Virus record (IMG/VR): IMGVR_UViG_3300021387_000156
Span: 1 to 62,120 of that record
DNA length: 62,120 bases
Direction: 5' to 3' (one strand)
From: a virus
The notes beneath the pieces were generated by a model. It saw only the letters and a program-made list of their open reading frames with translations. It did no database searches and was not told the origin of the DNA. Of the stretch, positions 8,647-35,249 are shown in pieces; position 1 is the first letter of the stretch, and each line of letters starts with the position of its first letter. A program made the translations under genes and the position numbers.

Positions 8647-9851
8647 TTGGTTATCATTATGTTGGTTAATTGTTTTCCGTTACTCGTAATAATCCAGCCG
8701 CCACGCTCGTCGTGGTCCAGCCACAAGTCCTCGACCTTGCCGAACTTGGTGACCGACCCGCAGAGGTCAACCACCCAGCCGTTCTTGCCGGGGTAGGGTC
8801 TAATCGCTCTGCCCACCATCTGGTAGTAGAGGGCGAGCGACATCGTAGGTCTCGCCAAAATGATTGTGTCAAGCGCGGGGTGGTCGAAGCCGGTAGTGAG
8901 AACGCCCACATTGGCGACCACTTCCGTTTCGCCACTCTTGAACCGCTCAAGTATGGCCTCACGCTCTTTCTTTGGCGTGCTGCCACTCACTACCTCGCAG
9001 AAGCCCATCAAGTCGTCAGCGAGGCGTTCTGCGTCCTCGACGAAGCGCACGAACACGAGGATGCCGTGACGCACGCTGCCGTCCTTCGGGCGCATGACAC
9101 GTTTGACGATGTTGAGGGTGTACTCGTAGAAGCCCACACGCTGAAATTCTTTGAAAAGCGATAAATCATCGTAGTCCGCACCCGTGGAATTGAGTTTCAC
9201 GTTGTCCAGTTCCAGCGCGTTCATGTCAAAGTACCTCAAATTGGCCAAATAGCCGGCATCTAGCAGCGTCTTTATCTGGCAATGATAAAGTACTTGGTCG
9301 AAGATGCGAGGACGAGTCCTCGTCAAAAATTTGAGGATTGAGCCATATTTCTTCCACTTGCTGTTTATGGTCTTGGGGTCGATTGTCTGACTCAGCCTGT
9401 AAGGTGTGGCGGTTAGCCCAATCACCTGACGGCCATCGACACGCTCGATGAACTCCTTGTACTGACCCTCACGAGGATTGACCAGGTGACACTCGTCAAT
9501 GAGGATCTTGTGGAACTCGTCGAATTTGTCTATGTGGTTCATCAATGAGCCGATAGTTGCGAAAGTGATGCGGTTGATCTCCTTGCGGTTGAGGCTGGCC
9601 GAATAGATTGAGCAGTCCCATGCGCCGTAACTCACCAGCTTGGCAAAGTTCTGCTCAAGGATTTCTTTGCTCGGCTGCAGCACAATCAGTGGCTCGTCAA
9701 TCTTGCTGGCGATGTCGGCAATCACAAGCGACTTGCCGGCACCTGTCGGGAGAATGAGCAGCCCGTTGTGCTTTGCGGTTGTCTTGTCGCTGAAGAACTT
9801 GACGGCCGCGTCGCTTGCTTCTTGCTGATATGGTCTCAGTGTGTATTGCAT
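8643..9851 (-). CDS. SF2 DEAD/DEAH-box helicase
   Basis: LILPTGAGKS (motif I), LIDECH (motif II), GLTATP (motif III), VLTTGFDHP and MVGRAIR (motifs V/VI). Confidence 0.8.
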   Translation of the reverse strand: MQYTLRPYQQEASDAAVKFFSDKTTAKHNGLLILPTGAGKSLVIADIASKIDEPLIVLQPSKEILEQNFAKLVSYGAWDCSIYSASLNRKEINRITFATIGSLMNHIDKFDEFHKILIDECHLVNPREGQYKEFIERVDGRQVIGLTATPYRLSQTIDPKTINSKWKKYGSILKFLTRTRPRIFDQVLYHCQIKTLLDAGYLANLRYFDMNALELDNVKLNSTGADYDDLSLFKEFQRVGFYEYTLNIVKRVMRPKDGSVRHGILVFVRFVEDAERLADDLMGFCEVVSGSTPKKEREAILERFKSGETEVVANVGVLTTGFDHPALDTIILARPTMSLALYYQMVGRAIRPYPGKNGWVVDLCGSVTKFGKVEDLWLDHDERGGWIITSNGKQLTNIMITK

Positions 9852-15432: not shown

Positions 15433-15897
15433 ATGTGTGGGCATTTTGTGTCAATGGGGCCCACGGACCATTTCTAAAAGCCATTACGCATTGCTGCGCA
15501 TTTGACAGATGGCGGACACATAAAATTATATGAGCAGTCTAAGCGGTTTGCGTCCTTTCCCGCCCACGCCTCCGTGGGGTCTTTATGCGGTACTCATCCG
15601 GTCGCATAGACATTTATCATTTCGTTAATCACTCGTGAGGTCTTGTCTGCAGCCTCATTTTCTGCACCCGGCTTGGCAGGCCGGGAATTTCGCTCGCATG
15701 ATTTGTCGCTGGCGCGGATGTCACTCTTATTGCCTTACTGCTCCCCTTTGCTCTGCATCACTGCGGCGGAAGGCTCTCGGCATGGCGTTACTCTCATGCT
15801 CGCTCATCGCTTGACTTGCCGGCGTGCTGCCGGTAGTATCAGCGGAAAATCAGTACGTCAAGGAACTCTGCTGCTACCCTTGCGGGTCTTGCTTTGG
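15433..15897 (-). ncRNA. ORF-poor, hairpin-rich ~465-nt region between two tRNA-type elements; candidate large structured RNA (strand inferred from the flanking tRNAs)
   Basis: No plausible CDS (the only ORFs have shadow-like composition). Multiple GC-rich stems, e.g. CCCAC/GTGGG 15563-15578, CCCGGC/GCCGGG 15667-15685, CCGGC/GCCGG 15819-15833. Confidence 0.35.
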
Positions 15898-15968
15898 TCC
15901 GCCGGTTGGATTTGCACCAACGGCCTCCGTGGAGCATCACGGCGCTCTCCTGTCTGAGCTACGGCGGA
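15898..15968 (-). tRNA. tRNA-like element with a 6-nt anticodon loop and atypical T loop
   Basis: By-eye fold: TCCGCCG/CGGCGGA acceptor, D arm GCTC-AGACAGGA-GAGC, stem CCGTG/CACGG with loop ATGCTC, T arm GTTGG-TGCAAAT-CCAAC; followed by CCA. Confidence 0.4.
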
Positions 15969-16001
15969 AATTGTGGTTTTGGCTGCTTCTGACTTTCCGT
16001 T

Positions 16002-16571
16002 TCACTCCTCGCCAGTGCGAGGCTTAAACATAAGGTCAGCCCATTCCTCGATGAATTGCATACCTGCGTAGGATGCGAGTTCACGAGTTCTGAAGGCAAG
16101 CCGAGAGCCGACGCTGGTGTGCGAGCTCGAAGCATCGTGATGCGCGTAGCAGTACACGAAGCCGTGGCTCGAGCTCGTGTAGCTGCCGGAGCGAAGAACA
16201 CAACGCCCTTTTTCCTCATCGTCTAACTCGTCGTACTGTTCCTTGGTGTAGAGATAGAACCAAGGATGGTAACGGCGTTCGCCTTTCTCGAACTTAGGTT
16301 CCCAGCCCTCATTGAGGGCAGCAACGATGATACGGAGTTTGAGGTAGGCATAGAGGTCGTCTAAAATAATATTGCCATCTGCTACTTTCAAGTATTCTTT
16401 TACAAGCGGATGCTCATCACCAAGTGCATTGCAAGCATCCGTAAACGTCTTGATACGTTCGGTTACTGGACGGTTATCTACTTTCTGCTCGTCAACGAGT
16501 GTAAGAACACCGTTAATCCACTCGGCACGTTTGCCGTCGGGAACAGAGATAGCTTGGAGAATTTTACTCAT
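16002..16571 (-). CDS. hypothetical protein (189 aa)
   Basis: Track ORF with an ATG start. Confidence 0.6.
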   Translation of the reverse strand: MSKILQAISVPDGKRAEWINGVLTLVDEQKVDNRPVTERIKTFTDACNALGDEHPLVKEYLKVADGNIILDDLYAYLKLRIIVAALNEGWEPKFEKGERRYHPWFYLYTKEQYDELDDEEKGRCVLRSGSYTSSSHGFVYCYAHHDASSSHTSVGSRLAFRTRELASYAGMQFIEEWADLMFKPRTGEE

Positions 16572-16607
16572 GATTACTGTGCTTTAGAGGATTGTGGTGG
16601 ACTGATG

Positions 16608-16934
16608 TTATAAATTCTCAACCATTGCGTCTAAGAGTTCTTTGGCGGAAATGTAACTGTTGATGGGAATGGAGCGGACGATTTTCTTCAAGGCGGTTAC
16701 CTTATCTTCCTCTTGTCTCCAGTAGTTGCGGAGTCGGGCGGCTCGCCCTATCTTCTCTTCCAACTCCTTCTCGAGAGTAGAAACCTTTTCCCTCAGCGAA
16801 TCACGCTCAGCGATTAGGTTGAGGTTGCTCTCTTGCAGGTCGTTCAACTCCTTTGCGGAGATTTCGACCATGTTCTCGTTCTCGGTGGCGGTCTTGTCGA
16901 TGACTTTTGCCTCGTTGTTGTTTTCGTTAGCCAT
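16608..16934 (-). CDS. coiled-coil hypothetical protein (108 aa), first gene leftward of the switch region
   Basis: Track ORF; divergent from the repressor gene. Confidence 0.6.
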   Translation of the reverse strand: MANENNNEAKVIDKTATENENMVEISAKELNDLQESNLNLIAERDSLREKVSTLEKELEEKIGRAARLRNYWRQEEDKVTALKKIVRSIPINSYISAKELLDAMVENL

Positions 16935-17131
16935 AGTTGTAAATCTTTTTAAGTTTTTGATTGAAAATAGTTTGCGGTATCAAAATTTTGTTGTAATTTT
17001 GCGTTGTGATAGATAGATAGTGCAAAGATATATCCATTTGGCTAAATTGCAAAACCAAATGGCTATTTTTGGCCGATATTTATGATTTATTAACATTTCA
17101 CCTGCTTTTAGGTGGCTAAAAAGTTTGCGGT
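16935..17131. promoter_or_regulatory. Divergent switch region between the leftward early operon and the repressor
   Basis: Minus-strand TATCTTTG box (complement of 17014-17021); duplicated AGTTTGCGGTAT at 16967-16978 and 17120-17131; inverted repeat CCATTTGG(13 nt)CCAAATGG at 17034-17062. Confidence 0.5.
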
Positions 17132-17452
17132 ATGATTGAACAAAGATTAAAAGCGGTCATCGCTTATAGTGGATTGAACGACTCGTCGTTCGCCAAGAAA
17201 ATTGGTGTGCAGCAGATGACGCTTTGGCGTCAAATCAACGGCGCACGCAAAATTAGCCTCGAAACAATTATGGCTGTGGCAAACGCCTTCCCCGAAATTG
17301 ATGCCAATTGGCTATTGCGTGGGATCGGCAGTATGTTAGCCGACAACGATGCACAGGAGAAACGTCTTGACAATCTCATTGACGTTATATCAATGCAGCA
17401 GGAAACCATCAAGAACCTCCAAGAGAAAATCAAATCACTTCAAAACTCATAA
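17132..17452 (+). CDS. CI-like HTH repressor with a C-terminal coiled coil
   Basis: SSFAKKIGVQQMTLWRQINGARKISLETIMAVANAFPEIDANWLLRG matches the phage CI-repressor-type HTH; on the plus strand with the integrase. Confidence 0.65.
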   Translation: MIEQRLKAVIAYSGLNDSSFAKKIGVQQMTLWRQINGARKISLETIMAVANAFPEIDANWLLRGIGSMLADNDAQEKRLDNLIDVISMQQETIKNLQEKIKSLQNS

Positions 17453-17455
17453 ATC

Positions 17456-18022
17456 ATGAAAGTATTAGCATTTATCATGGTGCTGCTGCCCATGCTGGCG
17501 GCAGCTCAAACATTCACTTTGACGCCACAAGGGTTCGTCAACGCTGATGAACAGACAAAGACTTATGTGGTGGTGGAAATGCCAGGAACGCAGGCAGAGC
17601 TCTACGCAAAGGCTAAGACAGCTGTCACATCCATGTGGAACTCACCAAAGGATGCAATGTCCTACAATGAGCCCGACATCATCGTAGTTAATGGATACTC
17701 AAAAAATGCGGCGCACTTCAAAAAATGGGGACGTGACAACATCTTCGGAATGGTATATAGACTGCAAATTCAGTTCAAGGACGGTCGCATAAGAATTGAC
17801 GCACCGGTAATAGGAAGTCTTGACTACGCAGGCGGACCAGGCACCATGCTCATTGAAGCCGGTGACAACTCCACTTCTCAACACATCACAAGAGCATTTG
17901 AGAAAAATGGTAAGGTGCGGTTCCCTGACTTCAACAAGAACGTGGAAGACTATTTTAACGGGCTCGTGGCCACACTCATCGACAAGATGAAGAACGGTGT
18001 TTCCAACGACGAGGACTGGTAA
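17456..18022 (+). CDS. secreted DUF4468-like protein (signal peptide)
   Basis: MKVLAFIMVLLPMLAAAQ signal peptide; co-oriented with the repressor (lysogeny-expressed candidate). Confidence 0.5.
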   Translation: MKVLAFIMVLLPMLAAAQTFTLTPQGFVNADEQTKTYVVVEMPGTQAELYAKAKTAVTSMWNSPKDAMSYNEPDIIVVNGYSKNAAHFKKWGRDNIFGMVYRLQIQFKDGRIRIDAPVIGSLDYAGGPGTMLIEAGDNSTSQHITRAFEKNGKVRFPDFNKNVEDYFNGLVATLIDKMKNGVSNDEDW

Positions 18023-18324
18023 AACCATCAAAAAATTGCCGAATTATTGTCGGGGAAGTTTTCGCAATCATCTCGCCCCGGCAATATTCGGCACGCTACC
18101 AGCAAGTTACACGGCTACCCCTTGCACATTACGCAAAATTGCACTAAGTAGAGTGATAAATATCGACTTATTTGCCTAAATACTTGTAAGTAGCGAACTT
18201 TTAGCGACTTAATCAGTAGATTAAATGGGAAACAACTCCAAATTTGGGGCTGAACTGATTGCCCAAAAATTGCCGATTTGGCGTTTTTGTTTCCCGATAA
18301 TTGTCGTAAAATTGTCGTAAAATT

Positions 18325-19512
18325 ATGGCTACACTTTCATTGACAGTAGTGCCCGGCAAGGCACTCAAGGACGGAAGACACAAAGTCCGTATCGCGGTGG
18401 CTCACCGCTCACAGACCCGCTACATCCTCACCGATGTCATCATCAACTCCACCAAAGAGTGGAAAAACGGCAAGATCGTCAAGCGTGACGATGCCACTTA
18501 CCTCAACACGAAGCTGCTCCAGCGTATGCAGGAGGTACAGCGCATCATCGACGAGACTCCATACACTGAGGGAATGACCTGCGCCGAGCTGGTTGCCACA
18601 ATCCTGCACACGCGGGCCAAGAAGACGCACACGCTGCGGTCGGCTTTCGAGGAGATGCTGGAGGTGTCAACAGCAAAGGACACCACCAAAGAACGCTACC
18701 GCACGCAGTTCAAGTCCATCACGTCGGTTATCCCCGAAACAACGTTCATGTCACATCTCACTCCACTCATGGTCCAACGCTTCATGAAGAAACGTGGAGC
18801 CGAGATTGCACCCATCACTCTGCAGACGCAGGTGACACTGTTCTCTCAGATCGTCAAGTTCTGCCAAATGAACGGTTACACCGATTTCCGCATACCGCCA
18901 ACACAGGGCTGCTACCAGCGAGTAGTTGCCGTGAGGCAGAACTGGCTTACTCCCGACCAGGTGAGGTTCATTCGCGACAACAAGACGAACCGCAGAGGCT
19001 ATAACAAGTTCCGTGACCTGTTCATGCTGTCCTACTACCTCGGCGGCATCAACCTCATAGACCTTGCTCACATCAACTTCAACGTGTGTGCAGATACGCT
19101 GCACTACGTCCGCACGAAGACAGAACGAAAGACAAAGGTCAATCCTTATGTAGAGTTTGAGATACCATCAGAGGCGAAGCCCATTATCGACAAGTACAAG
19201 GGGGAGGACGGCAAGTTGAAGATGTATAAGGCGGCAGACATACACCAGTGCCACTCAATGGTCCGCACGGTGCGTTCCTATCGTGATGACTATGGACTGC
19301 CGGGGCTTACGTTCTACTCGGCTCGCAAGTCTTTTGCACAGCACGCCTTTGCCCTGGGCGAGAGTGAGAGTGTGATTGACTATGTTCTTGGTCACTCACT
19401 GGGCGGTGGACACAACAAGATGCTGTTTGCCTACATCAAGGTCACGCCTGAAATGGCTACCGCATGCGTGAGAAAAGTGTGCGACTTTATCGCTTCAACG
19501 AGAAATTTTTAG
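18325..19512 (+). CDS. int: tyrosine integrase (Bacteroidota phage/CTn type)
   Basis: N-terminal arm-binding-like region; catalytic region RKSFAQHAF (HxxR-like), VLGHS and FAYIKV (Tyr). Confidence 0.75.
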   Translation: MATLSLTVVPGKALKDGRHKVRIAVAHRSQTRYILTDVIINSTKEWKNGKIVKRDDATYLNTKLLQRMQEVQRIIDETPYTEGMTCAELVATILHTRAKKTHTLRSAFEEMLEVSTAKDTTKERYRTQFKSITSVIPETTFMSHLTPLMVQRFMKKRGAEIAPITLQTQVTLFSQIVKFCQMNGYTDFRIPPTQGCYQRVVAVRQNWLTPDQVRFIRDNKTNRRGYNKFRDLFMLSYYLGGINLIDLAHINFNVCADTLHYVRTKTERKTKVNPYVEFEIPSEAKPIIDKYKGEDGKLKMYKAADIHQCHSMVRTVRSYRDDYGLPGLTFYSARKSFAQHAFALGESESVIDYVLGHSLGGGHNKMLFAYIKVTPEMATACVRKVCDFIASTRNF

Positions 19513-19547
19513 TACCTTTGCAGCGCATTTGGTTCATCTGCAAAGGT

Positions 19548-19566
19548 GAATTAAAATGTTTGACTT
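19548..19566 (-). promoter_or_regulatory. Leader-motif copy pointing antisense into the integrase 3' end
   Basis: Minus strand reads AAGTCAAACATTTTAATTC, followed only by a 16-codon ORF (ATG 19537) overlapping the int stop; flanked by a 9-bp hairpin CCTTTGCAG/CTGCAAAGG (19515-19546). Confidence 0.45.
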
Positions 19567-19568
19567 GT

Positions 19569-19608
19569 GTGACACCTGGCCGTGATGGTTCGGTGTCACT
19601 ATTTTTTA
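19569..19608 (+). terminator. Rho-independent terminator downstream of int
   Basis: GTGACACC-loop-GGTGTCAC followed by TATTTTTT. Confidence 0.65.
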
Positions 19609-19733
19609 ACAAGTTGCCGGCTATATGTTACCTTTTTACGAAAAAAGTAACACAAGGGCGAACCTTATGTTACTTTCTCGGTAATATTAGGTGTAACGCA
19701 AGAATACCTAAGTGCTGTTGAAAATGCGTTGCG

Positions 19734-19765
19734 CCCCTGCTTTTGCCCGGCAGGGGCTTTTTGTG
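19734..19765. terminator. Hairpin terminator between the convergent int and lysis transcription units
   Basis: CCCCTGC-ttttgcccg-GCAGGGG followed by CTTTTTGTG on the plus strand. Confidence 0.5.
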
Positions 19766-19850
19766 TGAAACTACCCCGACTTTCGCAAGCCAGGGCAGAG
19801 CGTTAACCTAAAAATTCATCTTATGAAAAAGATCTACACAGTGCTCATGA

Positions 19851-20405
19851 TTATATAAATCGCCTCACAAGGGCAAACAATGGTTTCCGGAATACTACTC
19901 CAACCCCAACGACAGACGCGCCCAGGAGCCACCAAAATGCGTCCAGACGGAATTTTTCCCATGGGGTGAGTTGCTTCTCAACAGGAACAGGCACTTTGAC
20001 CTCCCTGTTGCGGTAGATGACCTGTGTTTTGGTCTCCACTGGCTTCTCGAACGGTACCGGCACACTCTGCGGCTTGCTCTCCAGCTTGTGCGACAACGTG
20101 CCGTCTTTTTTGATGGCGACATGGCTGATTGCCCAGTCGTTCTCCAGCACGCTTGCACTGTCTTTCGTCACGATCTGCGCCGTCTGCACCGGCACATCGA
20201 AGTACAACGTGTCATGGACGAAGTGAATGCTGTCGTGAGTCTCGATGAGGGTGACTTCACGGACAATCTCTTTCGGTGACTTGCACCCCACCAGCAACAG
20301 GAATGCGCCGAGGAAGAGTGCAATAACGAGGGTAAAACAACCTCCGGCGAGGATGGCCTTCGCCTCTGCCCTCTCATCTGGCGTTAACTCTCTGCGCTCT
20401 TTCAT
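19851..20405 (-). CDS. unimolecular spanin (u-spanin) candidate
   Basis: Lipobox-like LLLVGC after an N-terminal helix, plus a C-terminal TM (WWLLGASVVGVGVVF); ATGA overlap with the endolysin stop. Confidence 0.5.
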   Translation of the reverse strand: MKERRELTPDERAEAKAILAGGCFTLVIALFLGAFLLLVGCKSPKEIVREVTLIETHDSIHFVHDTLYFDVPVQTAQIVTKDSASVLENDWAISHVAIKKDGTLSHKLESKPQSVPVPFEKPVETKTQVIYRNREVKVPVPVEKQLTPWEKFRLDAFWWLLGASVVGVGVVFRKPLFALVRRFI

Positions 20406-21187
20406 GACAGTCGCTTTTTGAAATCCTCCCACTTGTCGCTATTGTTGCGCTGGCTGGTTCTGCGCCCGTCGGTTGTGTAGATGAAGCCAGTGTTCCAGCC
20501 GATGATGCCGGGGCAGAGTTTGCCGGTTATGTTGAAGTGGCGCACCACTCGCTCAATGGGAATGTTGTACTTCCTCATCAGTATCTTTGCGAGGCGTGCG
20601 GCGTTGGCAAGCGCAGCCTCGGTGAATTCCCACCCCTCATGGTTGGGCACGGCTGCCGTGCCTTTCCTCAACGTGGAGCAAATCTCGATGGAGATTGTGT
20701 TGCGGTTGGTGGCGTCGGCGATGCAGGTAGCCCCTTTCTTGTCGCCTACCGCCCAGCAGTAGTAATTGTCCAAATCGGGATTGAACTGCACCATTTCGGC
20801 ATCGTCCACGGCGAAATCGGCACTCGCCTTGCGGTTCTCGAAGACGTGCTTGACGGCTCTCGCCCTGCCCGGTGCCGACGAGCTACCGGCGGTGTAGTGA
20901 ATGGCGAGGTACTTGATGGAGCGATCCGACAACTTACTCACATGGACGCTCAACGGCAGGTACACCACGCTCGGGTCAACGCATTTGGAATTTGCGGTTT
21001 TTGCAATTTCCAGCGCGTTCCACGTCTTGGCTCCCACGATGCCGTCGGCGACCAAACCTTTTCCTTTTTGGAAAGACCTCACCGCCGCCTCGGTCTTCGG
21101 GCCGAACACGCCATCGGCGGTAATGCCTAACGCTTTCTGCAAGGCAACGACATCGTCGCCCTTACTGCCTAACTTAACGGTCTTCAT
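20402..21187 (-). CDS. endolysin: PG_binding_1 domain plus N-acetylmuramoyl-L-alanine amidase (Amidase_2)
   Basis: GSKGDDVVALQKALGITADGVFGPKTEAAVRSFQ (PG-binding repeat); YLAIHYTAG ... VVRHFNITGKLCPG (amidase_2). Confidence 0.8.
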   Translation of the reverse strand: MKTVKLGSKGDDVVALQKALGITADGVFGPKTEAAVRSFQKGKGLVADGIVGAKTWNALEIAKTANSKCVDPSVVYLPLSVHVSKLSDRSIKYLAIHYTAGSSSAPGRARAVKHVFENRKASADFAVDDAEMVQFNPDLDNYYCWAVGDKKGATCIADATNRNTISIEICSTLRKGTAAVPNHEGWEFTEAALANAARLAKILMRKYNIPIERVVRHFNITGKLCPGIIGWNTGFIYTTDGRRTSQRNNSDKWEDFKKRLS

Positions 21188-21683
21188 TGTTCTCGTCTTT
21201 TAACTCGGTTAAATCAATATCGAAATGCCGGGCGGTCTTGTCAACCATGATTTTCTGCAACCACCGCCAAAACTTGCTGTCGGCTTCGTCTCGGCAACTG
21301 CTCTCGTTCTCCATGATTGACCATGCCTGCTCGAAGCATATCACACCTGTCACGATATACGATAAGGGTATCTCCACATGGATGAACACCCAATGCTCGA
21401 CAAGATAAGCCAGCAAGATGAGCATCAAGCGCTTCGGGATTGTCGTTGTGATGACTTTCCCGAATGCAAAGGATGTGAACTTGGCTTTCTCACGCGTTGT
21501 CTTCTCGGGGTACTTCTTTTTGACTCGCTTGTCAAGGCAATAGGCCGTGTAAGCGTCGTACACAATGAAGATGATCGCCACAATGATGAGAGGGAACGTC
21601 GGGTGGAACTCGCCCACAAGCCAGCCGAGCCAGCCGCCGATGGCGACGAATGCGGCCTTCCAAAAATTAACAAAGTCTGTCAT
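21174..21683 (-). CDS. holin (Phage_holin_4_1-like, multi-TM)
   Basis: Four hydrophobic segments and an AWSIMENES motif resembling the SILEN signature; immediately upstream of the endolysin. Confidence 0.65.
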   Translation of the reverse strand: MTDFVNFWKAAFVAIGGWLGWLVGEFHPTFPLIIVAIIFIVYDAYTAYCLDKRVKKKYPEKTTREKAKFTSFAFGKVITTTIPKRLMLILLAYLVEHWVFIHVEIPLSYIVTGVICFEQAWSIMENESSCRDEADSKFWRWLQKIMVDKTARHFDIDLTELKDENNEDR

Positions 21684-21722
21684 AGTCGTATAGTGTTAGT
21701 TGTTGTGTCGTTATTATTCCAA

Positions 21723-21730
21723 CAAAAGTA
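21723..21730 (-). promoter_or_regulatory. -7 box TACTTTTG upstream of the lysis cassette
   Basis: TAnnTTTG match on the minus strand, ~40 nt upstream of holin ATG 21683. Confidence 0.45.
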
Positions 21731-21847
21731 ATAACTATAATGGACAACTTTGGAGATGCCTGAATTCTTGAACAGGCTTTTTCGACGCAAAAACAACGAA
21801 AAGGGCTGAAATTGCGCTAATTGTGATTTTTATCAATCCACTTCTCG

Positions 21848-21855
21848 TATCTTTG
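21848..21855 (+). promoter_or_regulatory. -7 box TATCTTTG upstream of the shufflon recombinase
   Basis: TAnnTTTG match 10 nt upstream of ATG 21866 (very short or absent leader). Confidence 0.5.
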
Positions 21856-21865
21856 CGCCAAAAAA

Positions 21866-22855
21866 ATGGAACTCAACGAACTATTGAACGAGATTACGAA
21901 GAATCTGCAAGGTCATGTTGCAGTAGTGCAGATATTTGTGGACGGTGAGGTGCATGTGCGCCGTGTCGGTGATGCTAATAGGCTCATCGACAACCCGAGC
22001 CTCATACCACCGTCCTCTACCCTCTCATTTCTTGAATGGATGGCGAAACAGATTGACGAGGCGAACGTTACCAACGGAACAAAGTCTAATCATCGCAACT
22101 GCCTCAAGCACCTCGCTGCATTCCGTGAGGACATCACCTTTGCAGACCTTGATTATCGGCTCGTGTGCGCCTTCGACCGCTATCTGCGAGCGCTTAAACT
22201 TTCGGTCAACACCATTGCCAAACTCATGAAGGTGTGGCACCGGTACATCAACATCGCAATCAGCGAGGATTTGCTTATTGCAGACCCTTTTCGCAAGTAC
22301 ACGATCCATCGTGAGCAGACACACAAGAATACACTCAGCGAACGAGAACTCATGCGAGTGGAGAAGAATGTGGAAGCATTGCCCGTCAACGAGCGCAATG
22401 TGGTGCGAGCCTTCCTGTTCTCGTGCTATACTGGTTTGCGTTACTCCGACCTATGCCGAGTGAAAGGAAGCGATGTGAAATCGCTTGGAAAGCAGAAATG
22501 GCTCATCCTAAAGACGCAGAAGACCGGTGCCGAGGTTCATGTTCCTCTCTCGGTCTCCTTCGGTGGCAAAGGTGTAAGCATGGTCGAGAACCAGGGAGCG
22601 TTGTTTCATCTGCCGAATAATGCAAGGTGCAATGTGCTGCTCAAGCGAGCAATGAAACGGCTGCATGTGCGAAAACGGCTGTCGATGCACTGCGGTCGTG
22701 TCACTTGTGCAACCATCTGCCTATTGCGAGGTGTGCCGTTGTCCACCATTCAGCATGTGCTGGGGCACAAGTCTATCAATACGACTGCTTCGGTCTATGC
22801 TCAGGTCCTCGACAACACCATATCAAGGACGATGCGCCGTGCATGGAGGGCGTAA
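21866..22855 (+). CDS. tyrosine recombinase adjacent to the invertible tail-fibre cassettes (Rci-like role inferred)
   Basis: SAM-like N-domain (CLKHLAAFREDITFADLD); catalytic TGLRYSDL (Arg), HCGRVT (HxxR), VLGHKS and SVYAQV (Tyr). The stop codon at 22853-22855 abuts recombination site A. Confidence 0.8.
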   Translation: MELNELLNEITKNLQGHVAVVQIFVDGEVHVRRVGDANRLIDNPSLIPPSSTLSFLEWMAKQIDEANVTNGTKSNHRNCLKHLAAFREDITFADLDYRLVCAFDRYLRALKLSVNTIAKLMKVWHRYINIAISEDLLIADPFRKYTIHREQTHKNTLSERELMRVEKNVEALPVNERNVVRAFLFSCYTGLRYSDLCRVKGSDVKSLGKQKWLILKTQKTGAEVHVPLSVSFGGKGVSMVENQGALFHLPNNARCNVLLKRAMKRLHVRKRLSMHCGRVTCATICLLRGVPLSTIQHVLGHKSINTTASVYAQVLDNTISRTMRRAWRA

Positions 22856-22871
22856 TTCCCTCGGAACTAAG
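22856..22871 (+). repeat. Recombination site A (TTCCCTCGGAACTAAG)
   Basis: One of four copies of the core CCCTCGG(A/G)ACT, in the same codon register (S-L-G-T). Confidence 0.7.
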
Positions 22872-23282
22872 TTTAGGTACAATCGGGTCATAACAAAGGT
22901 AAAGGAATTGCATTACTTTACCGGATTGACATCTATAGCAGATTCTGCGTTCAGAGAGTGCTCAAACCTGTCTGAAGTAGATATCCCAGACTTTATAAAG
23001 TCCATTGAACGAATGGCATTCCAATCGAATAACTTGGCTAACGTGGTGCTTCCTGCATCAGTGGCATCTCTCGGTGACTCAAGTTTTAGGAGAAATGACA
23101 ATACCAGGGTAATCATGCAGACATGCACGTTGCTGAGGAACTCTGTAGTTACTATATTCGGAAATACATTTTCAGGTCAAACAACCACGCAATTTTACGT
23201 CCCGTCAGAATTGGTGGATTCTTACAAGGCAGCCACCAACTGGAGTAGTCTTGCCAGCAGAATACATGCCATTGAGGACTAG
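22857..23282 (+). other. Silent tail-fibre C-terminal cassette 1 (141 codons; no start codon or promoter of its own)
   Basis: SLGTKFRYNRVITKVKELHYFTGLTSIADSAFREC...FYVPSELVDSYKAATNWSSLASRIHAIED is homologous to the expressed fibre tip; BspA-type LRR units. Confidence 0.7.
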
Positions 23283-23794
23283 TCCGGGAGCTCGCTGATC
23301 GGGAAAATGTTGTTCACGGCAGTCGACCATCGGCTATCGGCTTTGTATGCGTCAACGAGGTCATCGGGCACATAGAAATAGTTGTTACCACCAGCGCTAT
23401 TGCCACTTCCGAAAGGCTGAACCTCAGGATAATCCAACACCCATGCAGGCTTGTTACTAGCCTTGAATGAACCGCAATTGGATGTTCCTGGTGCAAAAGT
23501 TATCATTTTGTGACGGATAATCCACCGACCTATGTAGCCTCCGGTCATAATACCGAAACTATATATTTTTGTGCAACTTGTCGGAACGACAATCGAATCC
23601 ATGTTTGGTTTGCAGCCGGTAAGGCCTCCATAATCTAGATTCTTCAGATTACCTGGGAACTGGAATTTCTTGATCGTGCTACCATTAAAGACTCCCTTGC
23701 CGTTCGATTGCTGTATAATGCTTGTGATGCCAGTGAATTTCTCCAGTTCATTAAATGCCGTAATCTGCGCACCTTGGAATGCAGTTCCGAGGGA
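23279..23794 (-). other. Silent tail-fibre C-terminal cassette 2 (171 codons)
   Basis: Manual translation from site B gives SLGTAFQGAQITAFNELEKFTGITS...FYVPDDLVDAYKADSRWSTAVNNIFPISELPD; TAG stop immediately 5' of the site; CTAG stop overlap with cassette 1. Confidence 0.7.
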
Positions 23795-23795
23795 A
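23781..23795 (-). repeat. Recombination site B (minus strand TTCCCTCGGAACTGC)
   Basis: Core repeat, back-to-back with site C. Confidence 0.7.
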
Positions 23796-23811
23796 TCCCC
23801 TCGGGACTAAT
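23796..23811 (+). repeat. Recombination site C (TCCCCTCGGGACTAAT)
   Basis: Core repeat in register P-L-G-T. Confidence 0.65.
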
Positions 23812-24354
23812 TTCAAGGGCAACACGCTAATCACGACTTTTAATGAGTTGCGATTCTTCACAGGATTAAAGACATGGGAATATCAGGCTCTTGGCAATTG
23901 CACCAAACTGACAAGTGCTCATCTACCCGCACACATGACATTCACACCCAACAGCATATTCCGCTCCGACACCAGACTCTCACAAGTTGTTCTGTCGCCA
24001 AATCTTCAGACTATCGGTCAATGGGGCTTCCACTCTTGCCCCATAACCGAGATAGACTTGCCTGTCACACTGACTAAAATCGAAACGGGCGCATTCTATT
24101 CAACGCGTTTAGTATCAGTAACAATCCCGCCAAATGTCACCTCAATAGCAAGTGCTGCTTTTGGTGTCAATACACTGACGGAGATTATCTTCCTCGGCAG
24201 CACACCGCCGACAGTTGGCGACGGTGGTCTTGCTGGTAATTTGTCATTTCCAATTTATGTGCCAGACGATGCAGTTGAGGCTTATAAAGCCGCACTCACG
24301 ACCAACAACTACGCCAACCGTGTGAAACCCATCAGCGAGAGGCCTACGGAATAG
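23797..24354 (+). other. Silent tail-fibre C-terminal cassette 3 (185 codons)
   Basis: PLGTNFKGNTLITTFNELRFFTGLKT...IYVPDDAVEAYKAALTTNNYANRVKPISERPTE; convergent 11-nt overlap with the expressed fibre 3' end. Confidence 0.7.
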
Positions 24355-27300
24355 CCTGTATATGGCTTGCGTGTGTACTCCACCTACTTGCAGCCTTGTA
24401 GGTTTCCAAGCTCTCTTGAGGTACGTATATGGAGCACGAAGCTGCGAGGGCGGCACCGTTCTCAAGTGTTGGCGGCGTGGCAGCTCTCACTGTCAGTGAC
24501 TGGATAGCACTACTACCGAAACACCAGTCACCGATGAAGGCTATCGTTGCTGGCAGGTCAAGAGAAACCAGTGATGCAGTAGATCGGAAGGCATTGCCTT
24601 CCAATCTTGTTATATTTTCGGGCACTACCATGCTTTGTATAGATGAAGATCGGAATCCATTAGATGGTATTCTTGTCAGGTTGCTGAAGTGACTGATTTC
24701 GTCAAATTTAGTAATCTGAGCACCCTGGAACTTAGTCCCGAGGGAACTAACAGCGGCAGCCTGGGCGGGTGTGATGCCGTCGGCGACTTTGTTGTATGCA
24801 CCCGCACCGGCGTTGGCCGTGGCCGTGATGTTGTATGCGCCCGTATTTGTCCTGTTCAGCACATAGTTGCCGTTCACAAGATCCCACTTGCCTGTGCCCG
24901 ACACTGGCGTGATGGTGAGGTCGTGCGAGCCTGTGCCGCCGGCAGGCTCCCAGTGATAGTCGCCCCAGTTGACGGCGCAGATGCGCATGACTTCGGGGTC
25001 CTCAAAGCGGATGTAGTAGGTGTCGCACACAATCGTGAGCGTGTTGCCGAAGTAGGCGCGGAGGGTGTTCAGCGTGTCCTCATACATCGGCGTTGTCACA
25101 TTGATGGTGCCTTGCAGTAGCGCAGGGGTATTCTCGTTTCTGACTCCTCCTTTTTCTGGGTCATAGATCACTCGACCGAATCCTGTGTTCTCGTCAGGAT
25201 CATACGGCACGGCCAATGTGGCAAGCAACTCCATCTCTGCACCCGTCATGTTGATAGCTCCCTCCCATATCAGCGAAACGAAATGAAGATGGTTGCCAGC
25301 AGTGTTGAGGATGCTGTTGAGAAGCGCGATGAAGTCAATCTGTGCACAATTGTTAACATACATACCGGAAATGCTTGCCTTGGCAGTCGCACTCAAAGTC
25401 ATGTGCTGATCATCAAGCATCGGCAGTGTATGCAAAAATAGGGTAATCAACTGGTCCGGGAACGACACCTCGCTGACCTTGCTGCCGATGGGCAGCAGCA
25501 TGTTTGGTGCTGATGATCCTGCAAACAGTGCCTTGCGCAGACGTGGGCATCCTGCCAACGACACGGTATTGTTCAGCGTGACCACATTGCGGCAGTCAAC
25601 CTCCTCGATGCAGTCACCGCTGATGTTGAGTGTGCCGGCGTTGAACAGCACATTGGAAGCGACGGCGTCGCCGACCTTGACCTTCTGCAAACGCTTGCCG
25701 CTGATGCTCATGGACGAACCAACCGATGCGTCACCGCCTCGGGTGGTCAGCGCAAGACCACTCAAGTCTCCCAGTTCGGTGTACCAGTCAACACCCTTGA
25801 GATAAAATGTGGTCGTACCATCGGAGGTCGCCGTGATGGGGCATGCAGTGCCAGCGGGTGTGCGGACACCTCTGATGATCGTACCGCCACCTCGGTTGCC
25901 AGTGGGGTACATCTCAACGGCAGGTTTGATGGCGAAGTTGAACGACTGGGCAGGCGTGAACTCAAGACGGCCCATGCCATCATCGCCAGAGCCTGTGAAG
26001 GCTGCGATGCTGTATTTCGAGAACAGTGACACAAGGTGCCACTCGACCCACTTGCGCTCAGCCTCCAACTGGGTGCCGTTTGCCTGACGCAAGGGCGGCA
26101 CATTGTTGTACACTGCCGTCGGGTCAAGTTCCCACACGTCAATGTACGACCAATCGGCATCGGCATTGTAGGCGGTCAAGGGGAAATAGTATGCGGAGTG
26201 GGCCCAGAAGTAGTACTGCATCATGTTCATCACACTCTCATGGATGCTGGGGCCGTTCACGTTGTACTGCGAGGCAAGGGAAACCAACGAGGTGACTATC
26301 GACTCTAGCATGTCCTTGACACCGCTCTGATAGCCGTCGGGATGGTTGATGATCTCCCAGAACGATGACGAGCAGCCCTGGTAAATGTCCACACCGTCGG
26401 TGGTCACGTCACCCACCTCGACGCTCGGCGACTTTGTCTGTTGCCCATTGTTGTCGGTCATGAGGATGGTGTCCATGTCATCCTGGCACCAAATCCATCG
26501 GCCTCCGTTGGCCAGTGTCTTCCACTTCATGGGATAGGAGTTCTTGGCGTGGTTGTCGCTGCAGGCAATCAACTCGCAGAATGCCTCATGATAACATGCG
26601 GCATTGATCGCCCAATATCGGCTCGACTCAGCCTTGAACTTGGCGATGCGGGCAGCACGCAGTTGTGCGGTCGTGGGCGATGTCGATGAGGTGATGGCCG
26701 TCAAGTAGGTGCCGAGGTAAGTCTTGATGTTGTGCGTGACCACCACTTCATAGTCGGAGTCATAGTCCTCGAGGTTGGCAAGCACCTCATACTTGCCCGT
26801 GCTGGTGCGGTAGTAGATGAGGTTGTAGTTGGCATCGTACAACTGCAGCACATCATTCTTCTTGTTGCCATAGATGTTGCGGCCTGCACGGAAGTTGTCA
26901 ATGTCGGCATTCAGTGCAGCCAGCGAGCTGTAGCCCGCCTCGCTCAGCGACGCGAGGTACGGTGAGCACAGGTAGGCGCTGTTGTAGGCTGGCTTCCACT
27001 CAGCCTCTAACAGCGCAAGCACATTGGCGGCATCGCTCGCCTTGTCGGTCGAGAATCGGCATGCACCGACATCCCAGCCTTCCTCACCACCGAAACACAG
27101 GGTCTCTTGCGTGTAGTCGTAGGTCACGTCAATCCAGGGGTGCAGGAACCGGGTGCCGAGAGGTGCGTGGTTCGGGCCCTCGAGCGAGAGCAATGACGGG
27201 TAAGTAGTCGTGTCATAGCCGCGCGTGCCGGCATCGTTCTTTGCGGGACCGACGGTGTACAGGCCTATGAACTTGTAAGAGCCGTCAGCATACTTCTGGA

Positions 27301-29692
27301 AACCGAGCATCGGGTATTGGTAGATGCTCACACGCACATCCTCGCTGGGCAGACCACTGCCGAGGCCGACAGCCTTGAACAACTCATCGAACATATTGCA
27401 GGCTCCCATCTTGTGCCCCTGCATGGACGATGCCACATTCTTCTTGGCCACGATGTCGTTGACCTTCGGGTGCAGACCCTTGCCGGCAATGTAGCCGCTC
27501 ACATTGTCGGTCGAGCCGTCGGCATAATGCCAAACGGCACTTGACTTCTTCAACTTGTTGCGCAGGTTCCAGCGGTAGTAGCGCATTGATGTGGTACCCT
27601 GACCGCTGATGGGGGCGTTGGTGATCTGCACATTCCAAGTGGGGTGGTCTGCATACTCCAGCCAGACAGTTGATGTGCCGCCAGTCGAATTGGTCAGCGA
27701 GGGGATGTCGTCATCGTTCTGCATCTGGATGACCATCGTATTGAAGCCGGCTGCCTTGCACAAGTCATACGAAATCTCACCACCGTCCATGATGTTGTTG
27801 TCGTGGCGCACACCGCTGCGGGTGTAGTCCATGCCGTCGATGATTGAGTTCAAGAAGTTCTGCTTCACACTCTCGCTCTCGAGCACCTGATTGTACACAC
27901 GCATGGTATAAAGGTATAGATCGGCACTTGCCTGGCCGAGACGCAGTGGGCCACTGCCGAACGAACCAGTGCCGTCGTACTCGAATACGCACTGCTGCAC
28001 ACCATTGATGTAGATACGGCAGAGGTTGCGACCGGTGGCCTTGTACAGGCGCTGCAGCACGACCACCACATGCAGGATCTTGTCCTCGCTCAGTTGCACA
28101 GTCTGCGGGGTTATCTGGCGGTCAGTTGAAGATACCACCAAAAGTCGGGTGGGGAACAGGATAATGCCGTTGGTGGTGGCTGCGTTGTAGGTCGGCGTGC
28201 TCATCATAGACAAGATGGGCGTGTCGTAGTCGCTGATGTTGCTGCATCTGTACTTAAACTCAATAGACACACTGCCCACCGATGCGCGGGTCAGCGGAGT
28301 GAGGTCTCCCACTTCGACCGTGCTGCCAGCCTTGATGACGAGGCACTTGTTGCTGTCGCTGTCCTGGTACCAGCCATCGGTAGACCATGACATGTTCGTC
28401 CACTCGGCATCATACGAAGCGACAGCGGCTCCTGTGGCTGCATTGATGATCTCGGCGCGGTCGGCAGATCCGTTGCTGCGGTTGGCGGCATTAAGATAGA
28501 ACATGGCGCCATCCACTGCGGTATACGACTGGGAGTTGTCGATGTCGGTGCGCATCATGGCGATCATGCCGTCCACCGCCACGGCGATGGTCAACTTGAA
28601 GTCATTGCCCTCGATGTCAACCTCAAGCGCCTTGGTGTAGTCCACCTTGGTCTGCGTCTGCACGCTGATGGCCTCGTGGTCCACCACCGTGATGGCCTCA
28701 CTGCCGTTCTGGGCGGTCAGCGACACCTCCACATGTGTGGCGTTGTAGGTGGCGAAGCGGAACAGGCGCTGCGTCTCGTAGTTCACGGCGGGATTGATGA
28801 TCTCGTTGATGCACACTAGCGCGACTTGGTTGATGTGCTGCTGCTGCACGCACATCACGTTGTATCTGTAGTGCTGTGTCTCCACACCATCACCGGCCAG
28901 CCAGATCTCCACTGTGTGGACACCTGTCTCACCGGGGAAGTAGTCCGTTATGATGAACTCATAAGGAGCGGTCGTGTAGTTCGTGCCTGACGGGAAGGTG
29001 CGTGTATAGGTCTGCTCGTCGTCATCGTCGATGCGGACATAGAGCGTCTTCTGCAAGTTACCGCTAAAGTAGAGCCCGTTGATGGCATACTCCTCGCCCT
29101 CGATCCAGGGATTGTTCCAGTTGTAGCGGGATGTCAGTGTCAACGAGGTGACCGAAGCCGTGAATGTCGTGGTCTTGGTCTGTCCCGAGTCCTTGCCCGT
29201 GACCGCCACTTTCACACGGTTGGTTCCCACCGAGAGGTAATTGCGCACATTCTGCGTGATGGTCGCTCCACTGAGGCAGTCACCGCTGGCCTTCTCGACG
29301 AAAGACCCGCCACCGTTGTCCACAAGCAGCGACCAACGGTAGTCCTCGGCAAAGGGTGTCATCTCGCCGCCGAGCGTTCCGCTCTTGGTCGACGGAGTGA
29401 CATTGATGTTTGCCACGGTGTCGTCCTTCAGCACATAGAACGAACTGGGCGTTGTCGTCGCCAGCGTGATGGCGTACACCGTACCGCTCAGTGGCACGAT
29501 GCCCAACTGAGTGCCGCCCTCGTAGTCATAGAACACAATGTTGCCGTTCTCGTAGGTGATATTGCCCACCTTCCCCTCGGTCGCAGCCTGCAGCGCGGCC
29601 AGCTGCGCCTTGATGAACTCCTCCACGCGGCTATTCTTGTAGCCCTCCCACGGGGTGCCAATGCCCGGTATTCTCTCGTCAATTCCTGCCAT
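24344..29692 (-). CDS. tail fibre / receptor-binding protein (1782 aa) with a LamG-like domain and a C-terminal BspA-type LRR tip
   Basis: Largest late ORF. GSFGSGPLRLGQASADLYLYTMRVYNQVL (concanavalin/LamG-like). The last 133 aa (SLGTKFQGAQITKFDEISHF...IYVPQESLETYKAASRWSTHASHIQAIP) are the swappable tip. Confidence 0.75.
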   Translation of the reverse strand: MAGIDERIPGIGTPWEGYKNSRVEEFIKAQLAALQAATEGKVGNITYENGNIVFYDYEGGTQLGIVPLSGTVYAITLATTTPSSFYVLKDDTVANINVTPSTKSGTLGGEMTPFAEDYRWSLLVDNGGGSFVEKASGDCLSGATITQNVRNYLSVGTNRVKVAVTGKDSGQTKTTTFTASVTSLTLTSRYNWNNPWIEGEEYAINGLYFSGNLQKTLYVRIDDDDEQTYTRTFPSGTNYTTAPYEFIITDYFPGETGVHTVEIWLAGDGVETQHYRYNVMCVQQQHINQVALVCINEIINPAVNYETQRLFRFATYNATHVEVSLTAQNGSEAITVVDHEAISVQTQTKVDYTKALEVDIEGNDFKLTIAVAVDGMIAMMRTDIDNSQSYTAVDGAMFYLNAANRSNGSADRAEIINAATGAAVASYDAEWTNMSWSTDGWYQDSDSNKCLVIKAGSTVEVGDLTPLTRASVGSVSIEFKYRCSNISDYDTPILSMMSTPTYNAATTNGIILFPTRLLVVSSTDRQITPQTVQLSEDKILHVVVVLQRLYKATGRNLCRIYINGVQQCVFEYDGTGSFGSGPLRLGQASADLYLYTMRVYNQVLESESVKQNFLNSIIDGMDYTRSGVRHDNNIMDGGEISYDLCKAAGFNTMVIQMQNDDDIPSLTNSTGGTSTVWLEYADHPTWNVQITNAPISGQGTTSMRYYRWNLRNKLKKSSAVWHYADGSTDNVSGYIAGKGLHPKVNDIVAKKNVASSMQGHKMGACNMFDELFKAVGLGSGLPSEDVRVSIYQYPMLGFQKYADGSYKFIGLYTVGPAKNDAGTRGYDTTTYPSLLSLEGPNHAPLGTRFLHPWIDVTYDYTQETLCFGGEEGWDVGACRFSTDKASDAANVLALLEAEWKPAYNSAYLCSPYLASLSEAGYSSLAALNADIDNFRAGRNIYGNKKNDVLQLYDANYNLIYYRTSTGKYEVLANLEDYDSDYEVVVTHNIKTYLGTYLTAITSSTSPTTAQLRAARIAKFKAESSRYWAINAACYHEAFCELIACSDNHAKNSYPMKWKTLANGGRWIWCQDDMDTILMTDNNGQQTKSPSVEVGDVTTDGVDIYQGCSSSFWEIINHPDGYQSGVKDMLESIVTSLVSLASQYNVNGPSIHESVMNMMQYYFWAHSAYYFPLTAYNADADWSYIDVWELDPTAVYNNVPPLRQANGTQLEAERKWVEWHLVSLFSKYSIAAFTGSGDDGMGRLEFTPAQSFNFAIKPAVEMYPTGNRGGGTIIRGVRTPAGTACPITATSDGTTTFYLKGVDWYTELGDLSGLALTTRGGDASVGSSMSISGKRLQKVKVGDAVASNVLFNAGTLNISGDCIEEVDCRNVVTLNNTVSLAGCPRLRKALFAGSSAPNMLLPIGSKVSEVSFPDQLITLFLHTLPMLDDQHMTLSATAKASISGMYVNNCAQIDFIALLNSILNTAGNHLHFVSLIWEGAINMTGAEMELLATLAVPYDPDENTGFGRVIYDPEKGGVRNENTPALLQGTINVTTPMYEDTLNTLRAYFGNTLTIVCDTYYIRFEDPEVMRICAVNWGDYHWEPAGGTGSHDLTITPVSGTGKWDLVNGNYVLNRTNTGAYNITATANAGAGAYNKVADGITPAQAAAVSSLGTKFQGAQITKFDEISHFSNLTRIPSNGFRSSSIQSMVVPENITRLEGNAFRSTASLVSLDLPATIAFIGDWCFGSSAIQSLTVRAATPPTLENGAALAASCSIYVPQESLETYKAASRWSTHASHIQAIP
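24731..24746 (-). repeat. Recombination site D inside the tail-fibre ORF (minus strand TTCCCTCGGGACTAAG)
   Basis: Core repeat encoding S-L-G-T, 133 codons before the stop. Confidence 0.7.
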
Positions 29693-34778: not shown

Positions 34779-35249
34779 CTACTTAACATTGACCAACTTT
34801 GCCAACATTCTGCGCCCGTCATGTACCCTGCGCTTGACCGTCCCGAGCGGTACGCCCCTGGCAGTGGCCACCTCTTGCAGGGTGTAGCCTTTCGCCACAT
34901 CCATCAGAGTCTCCACCGCCACGCTGACTCGGCATCGATCAATGGCTGATAGCACGTCGCCTACCATGACACGCTGGTCGGCTTCCTCTCCTCCTGGCTC
35001 ATCCCAATCGCCAAGTGGCTGGGTCTGGGTGACGGATAGTTTATGTTCGGTGTTCGTCCAAAGGTTTCGCATGATAACCCGGCACCATGCGAGCAACGGA
35101 CGGGTCTCGTCGTAGCGGTCGCGGGCTTCCAGCGCCCTCACCACTGTGTCGGCGGCAAGATCGTGCGCCCGGTCATCGTGATAGTAGTACCTACTCGCTA
35201 TCGCCAAGAGCGAGTAGTACGCCTCCACGATAGCTGCATCAAAGTTCAT
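34779..35249 (-). CDS. ECF-type sigma-70 family RNA polymerase sigma factor
   Basis: Region 2-like LLAWCRVIMRNLWTNTEHK; region 4 HTH GYTLQEVATARGVPLGTVKRRVHDGRRMLAKL. Confidence 0.65.
   Translation of the reverse strand: MNFDAAIVEAYYSLLAIASRYYYHDDRAHDLAADTVVRALEARDRYDETRPLLAWCRVIMRNLWTNTEHKLSVTQTQPLGDWDEPGGEEADQRVMVGDVLSAIDRCRVSVAVETLMDVAKGYTLQEVATARGVPLGTVKRRVHDGRRMLAKLVNVK

Follow-up and report, generated by a model that had tools for sequence, protein, structure and literature searches.

A tail-fibre shufflon with interchangeable leucine-rich-repeat tips in a Bacteroidales phage, probably operated by an adjacent tyrosine recombinase

In this study, we analysed a 62,120-nt stretch of viral DNA (IMG/VR record IMGVR_UViG_3300021387_000156, positions 1 to 62,120; hereafter the window), which is a temperate, siphovirus-like tailed phage of rumen Bacteroidales. 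Between a tyrosine recombinase gene and the tail-fibre gene's 3' end we found four short, alternately oriented repeats and three silent gene fragments related to the end of the fibre (Table 1). We read this locus as a phage tail-fibre multiple-inversion system (shufflon), active in nature, in which the adjacent recombinase swaps leucine-rich-repeat (LRR) tips, and put the probability of this reading at about 0.88. The logic of shufflons is already known, and the locus adds a further, well-supported case to it, in Bacteroidales phages with BspA-type LRR tips. A preliminary description of this DNA had regarded the arrangement as uncharacterised; this has to be withdrawn, since a Rin shufflon (2018, PMC6109161) and a BV01-like shufflon (2026 preprint, PMC13596623) have been described.

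Table 1. Features of the inversion locus and its surroundings in the window
Feature	Position	Strand	Remarks
Promoter-like Bacteroidota-type -7 box TATCTTTG	21848..21855	+	pattern match; 10 nt upstream of recombinase ATG
Shufflon-associated tyrosine recombinase, 329 amino acids (aa)	21866..22855	+	Pfam Phage_int_SAM_5 (5.7e-20), Phage_integrase (5.2e-16)
Site A, recombinase-proximal outer site	22855..22867	+	13-bp dyad ATT-CCCTCGG-AAC; core 22858-22864; contig L041 ends at 22864
Silent cassette 1	22857..23282	+	141 codons; Pfam LRR_5 8.4e-16, 58.5 bits
Silent cassette 2	23279..23794	-	171 codons; tail-to-tail with cassette 1; LRR_5 0.002, 18.5 bits, below gathering score
Sites B and C, internal, back-to-back	23783..23808	B -, C +	cores 23787-23793 (B) and 23798-23804 (C); 4-nt spacer
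Silent cassette 3	23797..24354	+	185 codons; LRR_5 3.8e-20, 72.5 bits
Expressed tip (fibre C-terminus)	24344..24745	-	133 codons; LRR_5 39.4 bits
Site D, inside the fibre gene	24735..24747	-	13-bp dyad GTT-CCCTCGG-GAC; core 24738-24744; ends of contigs L040 and L047 nearby
Constant body of tail fibre or distal tail protein, aa 1-1649	24746..29692	-	last gene of tail module, downstream of tape-measure gene
Separate phage integrase (context)	18325..19512	+	Pfam Arm-DNA-bind_5; PHROG_1 integrase

The motif CCCTCGGRACT is present exactly four times in the 62-kb window, at 22858-22868 (+), 23783-23793 (-), 23798-23808 (+), and 24734-24744 (-), as had been described, and no extra copy appears when one mismatch is allowed. 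Shuffled sequences contained 0.04 copies on average, and none of 100 shuffles reached four. The sites follow one another in the order +, -, +, -, so that they bound invertible segments. The longest exact inverted repeat at the locus measures 14 nt, exact identity between sites ranging from 11 to 14 nt (13 nt for C and D).

Translation from each site yields (S/P)LGT and then, in one codon register, open frames of 141, 171, 185, and 133 codons, in agreement with the preliminary description. The last of these ends the 1782-aa fibre open reading frame (ORF; 24344-29692, -), site D lying 133 codons before its stop as proposed. Each segment carries a possible 3' end for one and the same gene, in frame at its site, and fusions of this kind are seen in two related loci, L001 and L038. 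The four tips align at 32-38% identity with invariant L2, G3, T4, F6, I11, T12, E16, F20, and Y-V-P...Y-K-A, which upholds their proposed homology together with its invariant start and YVP...YKA motifs. All of them match Pfam LRR_5, although only three exceed its gathering score (27.7 bits); the proposed BspA-type LRR units are therefore borne out by profile for these three, whereas cassette 2 falls short. An AlphaFold model of the expressed tip (predicted local distance difference test, pLDDT, 81.6) forms an LRR solenoid, and its top Foldseek matches are LRR surface proteins of the BspA type from Bacteroides (4fdw and 4fd0); LRR proteins from gut siphoviruses were matched as well. The segments are packed as two convergent pairs with overlapping stops, CTAG at 23279-23282 and 11 nt at 24344-24354, exactly as first noted.

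The silent frames had also been said to lack a start codon, to be closed by a stop just 5' of the site, and to lack a promoter, and here some correction is needed. For cassette 3, an ATG lies in frame 6 codons upstream of the site (ORF 23779-24354), and gene callers report a 191-aa gene there. The frame of cassette 1 is not closed: read upstream, it stays free of stops for 67 codons inside the recombinase gene and has an ATG at 22665. A scan of the window for the TAnnTTTG box revealed none placed to drive the silent cassettes, although this is weak evidence because the motif is frequent (36 matches). The frame upstream of the recombinase-proximal cassette is open for 51-106 codons across the recombinase 3' end in several lineages, namely the window (22665-23282, +), L001, L003, L009, and L038, and gene callers emit a 205-aa overlapping LRR ORF at the proximal cassette (P0001 in L038).

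We compared 47 unique sites, collected with a search pattern that did not impose T at -2. Their consensus is R-T-N-CC-(C/A)-TC-GG-N-A-Y, that is, a 13-bp dyad (RTNCC / GGNAY) around an asymmetric centre, which gives the site its direction. The T at -2 is invariant, although what lies to its left may be the end of the recombinase gene, the fibre body, or an internal spacer. Within each of the 20 fetched loci with sites (15 distinct contigs, window included), all sites have one and the same 7-bp core; by distinct contig, it is CCCTCGG in nine, CCATCGG in six, and mixed in none. The users of CCATCGG include L015 and L003, with recombinases 97% and 95% identical to that of the window. In the overlap region of tyrosine recombinases partner sites must match, and a sequence that is uniform within a genome and variable between genomes is thus expected there. 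In junction alignments, left flanks are identical up to the core and right flanks from about +7, so that the breakpoints fall between -1 and +7. Cassette 3 begins with CCC (Pro) in the window and with TCC (Ser) in L038, which means that base -1 stays with the left flank. The uniformity of the core within genomes and its variation between them, along with this flank analysis, place strand exchange inside the 7-bp core.

Mere protein-level conservation of the SLGT motif was considered as an explanation of the repeats and rejected, because synonymous codon positions do not vary, T at -2 is kept even beside non-coding left flank, and rearrangement breakpoints map to the core. A related observation is that loci with recombinases 95-97% identical to the window's (L003, L004, and L015-L018) carry CCATCGG at every site, turning SLGT into SIGT. 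Just past the core, the two outermost sites of the window (22866-22873 and 24729-24736) have ACTAAGTT in common, whereas the L038 sites at 9008 and 9921 have ACTGTGTT in common; one and the same tip thus starts with SLGTK in the window but with SLGTV in L038. At times, exchange or conversion tracts may reach about 6-13 nt beyond the core.

Alternative arrangements were found in the window's own lineage. We looked up contigs encoding exact window proteins and compared them with the window as given and with in-silico inversions of it. L049 (ENA ERZ28612970, 876 nt) shows 0 mismatches, and L048 (ERZ12302812, 1114 nt) 1 mismatch, to the window after inversion between the C and D cores, compared with 135 and 136 to the window as given. 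Their junction reads ...AACTTAGTCCCGAGGG-GATT-CCCTCGGAACTGCATTCC..., where the expressed tip stands back-to-back with cassette 2 in place of cassette 3, and the inverted state of these contigs would put cassette 3 on the fibre. Both contigs, which come from different assemblies, stop at window 23619 inside cassette 2; this may be another branch point or variant. L040 (ENA ERZ28612940) carries the window state, being 100% identical to window 15866-24792, and has the same BioSample label as L049. It ends 48 nt past the site D core, and its final 55 nt start at the last core base (24738+54), which fits a k=55 branch vertex.

Furthermore, the Logan assembly of SRR873601 breaks at two of the sites. 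The left-flank contig L041 matches the window at 100% identity up to its end at 22864, where the core of site A has its last base, and L047 is a separate 1891-nt unitig equal to window 22856-24746, from TT+core to core+AA. Since the longest exact repeat is only 14 nt, breaks of a k-mer graph at the cores imply reads with more than one junction. The assembly breaks at A and D and nowhere at B/C, which is the pattern that an A/D inversion polymorphism would be expected to leave. Together with the permuted relatives described below, these contigs indicate that alternative arrangements exist in natural populations.

Fourteen distinct relatives carry between two cassettes (L009, the closest fibre relative of the window) and eight (L015). 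The preliminary description had proposed that related genomes be compared for sites in other orientations, and had named broken frames or missing core repeats in relatives as what would speak against inversion. In fact, the same cassettes recur in other positions, and all 47 unique sites lead into intact frames. In L001, whose fibre body is 89.5% identical to the window's at the nucleotide level, the tip fused to the fibre ORF at SLGT matches silent cassette 1 of the window at 98.6% amino-acid identity. Cassette 3 adjoins the recombinase gene both in L001 and in L038, and L001 has a cassette 2 homologue (69% identical) at the same position as in the window. L038, a prophage within a bacterial contig of 224.7 kb, shows 92-96% identity to the window throughout; there the recombinase gene is followed by cassette 3, by the tip that the window expresses (silent in L038), by cassette 1, and finally by a new tip, which is fused to the fibre. 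BLAST matches between the two end at cores (L038 8058-9010 = window 23794-24746; 9009-9535 = window 22854-23380). Near-identical phages differing by inverted pairs were also found (L003 vs L004 and L018; L019 vs L020), and the fibre body is conserved at 68-95% nucleotide identity among relatives with different tips.

Several relatives differ in the number or layout of cassettes. L004 (8993-10876) retains four of the six cassettes of L003 (8993-11668), and its first pair is the L003 cassette at 10881 (98.7% identical) joined to the L003 cassette at 8993. This pattern fits several inversions followed by a deletion between paralogous cassettes that are about 75% identical; homologous recombination could thus reduce the number of cassettes. 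In the distant relative L007 (recombinase 44% identical), a 38-nt inverted repeat (92%; 6855-6892 and 7920-7957) flanks two convergent tips of a 1998-aa fibre, and the recombinase start adjoins the outer repeat; as judged from its layout, this locus is a simpler two-state version with a different site. Relatives of the L001 type (L001 5283-10674) have cassettes on both sides of a 2.5-kb block of three lysis-like genes and the recombinase gene, the order being integrase, site, two pairs, site, lysis genes (-), recombinase (+), site, one pair, site, and fibre. Cassette T02, the same as cassette 1 of the window, is joined to the fibre body in L001, to the lysis-side flank in L025, and to the integrase-side flank in L045 (3846-5572), and large inversions must therefore flip the lysis-recombinase block. 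L001 closes with 86 nt that repeat the end of the fibre body and the core in inverted orientation with one mismatch, resembling a fold-back through an alternative junction.

The gene adjoining site A encodes a tyrosine recombinase, as had been described from its domains and residues. Aligned to XerA (5hxy), it has R192, H275-x-x-R278, H302, and Y311 in place, and it matches Phage_integrase (PF00589) at 59 bits vs a cut-off of 27. It lacks an arm-type DNA-binding domain and matches PHROG integrase families. In NCBIfam we found only sub-threshold Xer-like or integron-integrase matches and no named invertase family, Tsr0667 and PsrA not being listed at E<=0.001; neither Pfam nor NCBIfam gave a resolvase match. 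By tblastn against phage records its best match reached 36% identity, and the best annotated match, in Bacteroides phage BS-TP2, was set aside as an ordinary integrase that does not lie beside a fibre. The gene does not end one nt before site A, as had been stated; rather, its stop (22853-22855) abuts the site and lies 2 nt from the 7-bp core. The TAnnTTTG box ascribed to it is present as TATCTTTG and may act as its promoter; the motif is weakly enriched in the window, with the above 36 matches vs 23 expected.

The adjacent recombinase is the probable catalyst of the inversions, given the following. Wherever a related locus extends far enough, a homologue (44-97% identity) directly adjoins the cassettes, and in every close relative 2 nt separate its stop from the outer core. 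It is not the phage integrase, because an integrase with an arm-type domain is encoded elsewhere and the L038 homologue of that gene adjoins host genes, near the prophage end. It is nevertheless conceivable, although quite improbable, that the inversions are real and some other enzyme carries them out, be it the phage integrase, a host invertase, or RecA acting on short inverted repeats, in which case the adjacent recombinase gene would serve another role. The second tyrosine recombinase of the window would be a candidate, and Bacteroidales genomes encode many tyrosine and serine invertases; Tsr15 is discussed in this connection (PMC6109161). Against such a catalyst stand the constant companionship of recombinase and cassettes and the fixed 2-nt spacing just described, the 11-14 nt of exact identity between sites, too short for efficient homologous recombination, and the confinement of breakpoints to the 7-bp core.

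It is even more improbable, to a degree that we give it hardly any weight, that the locus is a static array of paralogous tip fragments produced by duplication, with the alternative states being assembly chimeras or products of rare illegitimate recombination between phages. The alternative states are indeed known from assemblies, some probably of the same study, and cassettes have been exchanged between otherwise diverged phages (cassette 3 of L001 is 97.8% identical to the window's, compared with 68.5% nucleotide identity of the recombinase genes). However, the exact match between C and D is shorter than assembler k-mer sizes, yet two assemblies have the junction at the very base predicted; the breaks between unitigs are symmetrical and coincide exactly with cores; and, besides the intactness of the frames at all 47 sites, cores change in concert within genomes. 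A different doubt concerns function rather than mechanism. The switch could be real without the LRR tips setting host range; they might instead attach the phage to mucus, feed particles, or other cells, or play a part in immune evasion or in superinfection exclusion. For the fibre body there is no characterised homologue, and BspA-type LRR domains are general adhesion modules of gut bacteria, so this alternative deserves somewhat more weight than the preceding two, but we still regard it as unlikely: the tail module ends with this gene, its largest, which follows the tape-measure and distal tail genes; the fibres, otherwise conserved, vary most at their tips; and the well-studied phage inversion switches (Mu, P1, p15B, and Rin) all act on receptor-binding tips (PMC6109161).

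A number of points weigh against a recombinase-driven shufflon of receptor-binding tips and account for our reserve. What suggests the link between the recombinase and the inversions is adjacency and co-conservation. The evidence for alternative junctions consists of assembled contigs, and a single study or biosample may be the source of L040, L049, and perhaps SRR873601, which would then not be fully independent; no contig 100% identical to the window was recovered for the reciprocal junctions, in which the fibre body is joined to cassette 3 or 1. The conserved site, at 13 bp, is shorter than classical tyrosine-recombinase core sites, and extra determinants or host factors may be needed. As to the tips, cassette 2 lies under the Pfam LRR_5 threshold (18.5 vs 27.7 bits), the fibre body matches only PHROGs of unknown function (24896 and 14959), with no Pfam match outside the tip, and it is gene position and LRR fold that point to a receptor-binding role.

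With these reservations, the shufflon would work as follows. The adjacent recombinase would pair two oppositely oriented sites and exchange strands within the asymmetric core CCCTCGG, thereby inverting the DNA between them. Every core lies in the same codon register (Ser-Leu-Gly), and for this reason each inversion involving site D would join another tip in frame. Inversion between C and D would bring in cassette 3, A/D cassette 1, and A/B followed by A/D cassette 2; in total, eight arrangements and four fibre proteins would be possible. That any of the four tips could be fused in frame had been foreseen, and all three routes prove to be in frame on paper, with C/D and A/D seen independently. 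A lysogen or phage population would then yield virions with different receptor-binding tips, as bet-hedging against variable host surfaces. The tips are probably receptor-binding, and a switch of tip would probably alter the host range.

Of the systems described so far, the one that comes closest is the Rin shufflon of Bifidobacterium breve and B. longum prophages, in which a phage-encoded tyrosine recombinase acts on a receptor-binding protein (Mavrich et al. 2018, PMC6109161). As in the window, a recombinase without an arm-binding domain flanks promoterless C-terminal cassettes (the recombinases themselves being compared by description), a short asymmetric crossover site precedes each cassette (rix, 11 bp), and arrangements differ, in the Rin system, between prophages and virions (PMC6109161). 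However, the hosts are Actinobacteria rather than Bacteroidales, the fibre and tip folds are unrelated (LRR_5 here), and the core sequence is another. The Rv tips of Rin are 6-30% identical, compared with 32-38% here (PMC6109161), and, unlike in Rin, up to eight cassettes are present and cores covary between lineages. No Bifidobacterium phage record was among the 77 tblastn matches to the recombinase. The rix site TTCCCTAACCC and the window site TTCCCTCGG(A/G)ACT coincide in their first six bases (TTCCCT) and no further, so the latter is not a rix site. This TTCCCT, common to TTCCCTAACCC and TTCCCTCGG (window 22856-22864), may be coincidence or reflect related DNA recognition.

A tail-fibre shufflon has also been reported for BV01-like phages of Phocaeicola vulgatus, where, according to the 2026 preprint, all configurations were detected in reads (PMC13596623). 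That system resembles the present one in belonging to a temperate Bacteroidota phage and in having several cassettes within an invertible region, which a recombinase borders on one side and the distal tail-fibre gene end on the other, but differs in a directional 10-bp motif between cassettes (TGGGAGAACT, with no match in the window) and in having three non-homologous cassettes that give six variants via different stop positions (PMC13596623). Eight Bacteroides or Phocaeicola phage records were matched by the recombinase in tblastn, and BV01 was not among them.

Among better-known systems, the R64/IncI1 shufflon (Rci) likewise has a tyrosine recombinase gene adjoining the array, several short asymmetric sites, and segments with convergent alternative C-termini of one adhesin gene (pilV). 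The sfx sites of R64 have a 7-bp crossover core. In contrast to the present locus, R64 is plasmid-borne and its target is a conjugative pilus adhesin rather than a phage tail fibre; together with the above NCBIfam result, this sets the window's system apart from Rci/pilV. The site sequences appear to differ as well. Mu Gin, P1 Cin, and p15B Min are alike in being phage-borne systems in which DNA inversion swaps the receptor-binding C-terminal portion of a tail fibre, in Min with multiple segments. These enzymes are serine invertases with a Fis-dependent enhancer. Unlike them, the enzyme here is of the Phage_integrase type, and the window's segments hold no chaperone gene, whereas chaperone genes are co-inverted in the Gin, Cin, and Min systems.

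A bolder reading, which we offer only tentatively, is that the locus represents an undescribed phage invertase family, widespread in rumen and gut Bacteroidales phages and tied to Rin and Rci by superfamily only. It is similarly possible, though doubtful, that the enzyme reads just the short dyad arms (RTNCC/GGNAY) and tolerates either CCCTCGG or CCATCGG as overlap; if so, near-identical enzymes would run naturally orthogonal site sets. We would likewise hold it to be a speculative extension that the invertible DNA of L001-type relatives also includes the lysis genes and the recombinase gene, which, if true, would couple tip choice to the orientation of these genes.

The shufflon is of interest as a sequence-defined, naturally active example of programmed tail-fibre variation in Bacteroidales phages, whose host-range determinants are poorly known and whose hosts vary their own surfaces by inversion. 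The features of note are the size of the cassette pool, the covariation of core bases, and the relatives with lysis and recombinase genes between sites. With two to eight tips per phage and about 40 types in the fetched loci, the cassettes form a natural library of interchangeable LRR tips, which could possibly be used for engineering phages with switchable specificity. The 13-bp site, with an overlap base that differs between near-identical enzymes, should be useful for studying partner choice of tyrosine invertases. In practical terms, short-read assemblies break exactly at the cores of such loci, and gene callers list silent cassettes as small LRR genes.

The minus strand of the window encodes the large terminase, portal, protease, and major capsid protein, followed by a 1373-aa tape-measure protein, distal tail genes, and, at the end, the 1782-aa fibre protein. 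Past the shufflon are the recombinase, a 169-aa ORF, an amidase endolysin, and the second tyrosine recombinase with its arm-type DNA-binding domain. The sample label, which is unverified, suggests sheep rumen as the source, and the relatives originate from Bacteroidales and Muribaculaceae metagenome-assembled genomes and Joint Genome Institute (JGI) metagenomes. Megablast of window 21500-26500 against 50,697 phage records gave zero matches, and tblastn of the fibre end against phage records gave weak matches at most. Viral contigs searched with the expressed tip gave no match, and the last 150 aa of the constant fibre body found none at E<=1e-20 in a 5.8-billion-protein collection. Cassette 3 as query returned three short ORFs only, one of which led to L038.

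Homology to the prophage L038 and to L009 begins sharply at window ~18136, just upstream of the integrase gene, and in L038 host genes lie to the left of the matching point. This position is probably attP or the prophage end, and the window may be a circular or permuted phage assembly. The large terminase ORF (48715-51696, -; 993 aa) probably holds an intein, because Hint, PT-HINT, and intein-splicing matches sit in the middle of the protein. A 685-aa protein (4552-6609, -) combines an N-terminal MutS domain I with ParB N-terminal and helix-turn-helix domains, an unusual fusion. Finally, a 156-aa ORF in the tail module (34779-35249, -) matches PHROG RNA polymerase sigma-factor families (6.6e-13).

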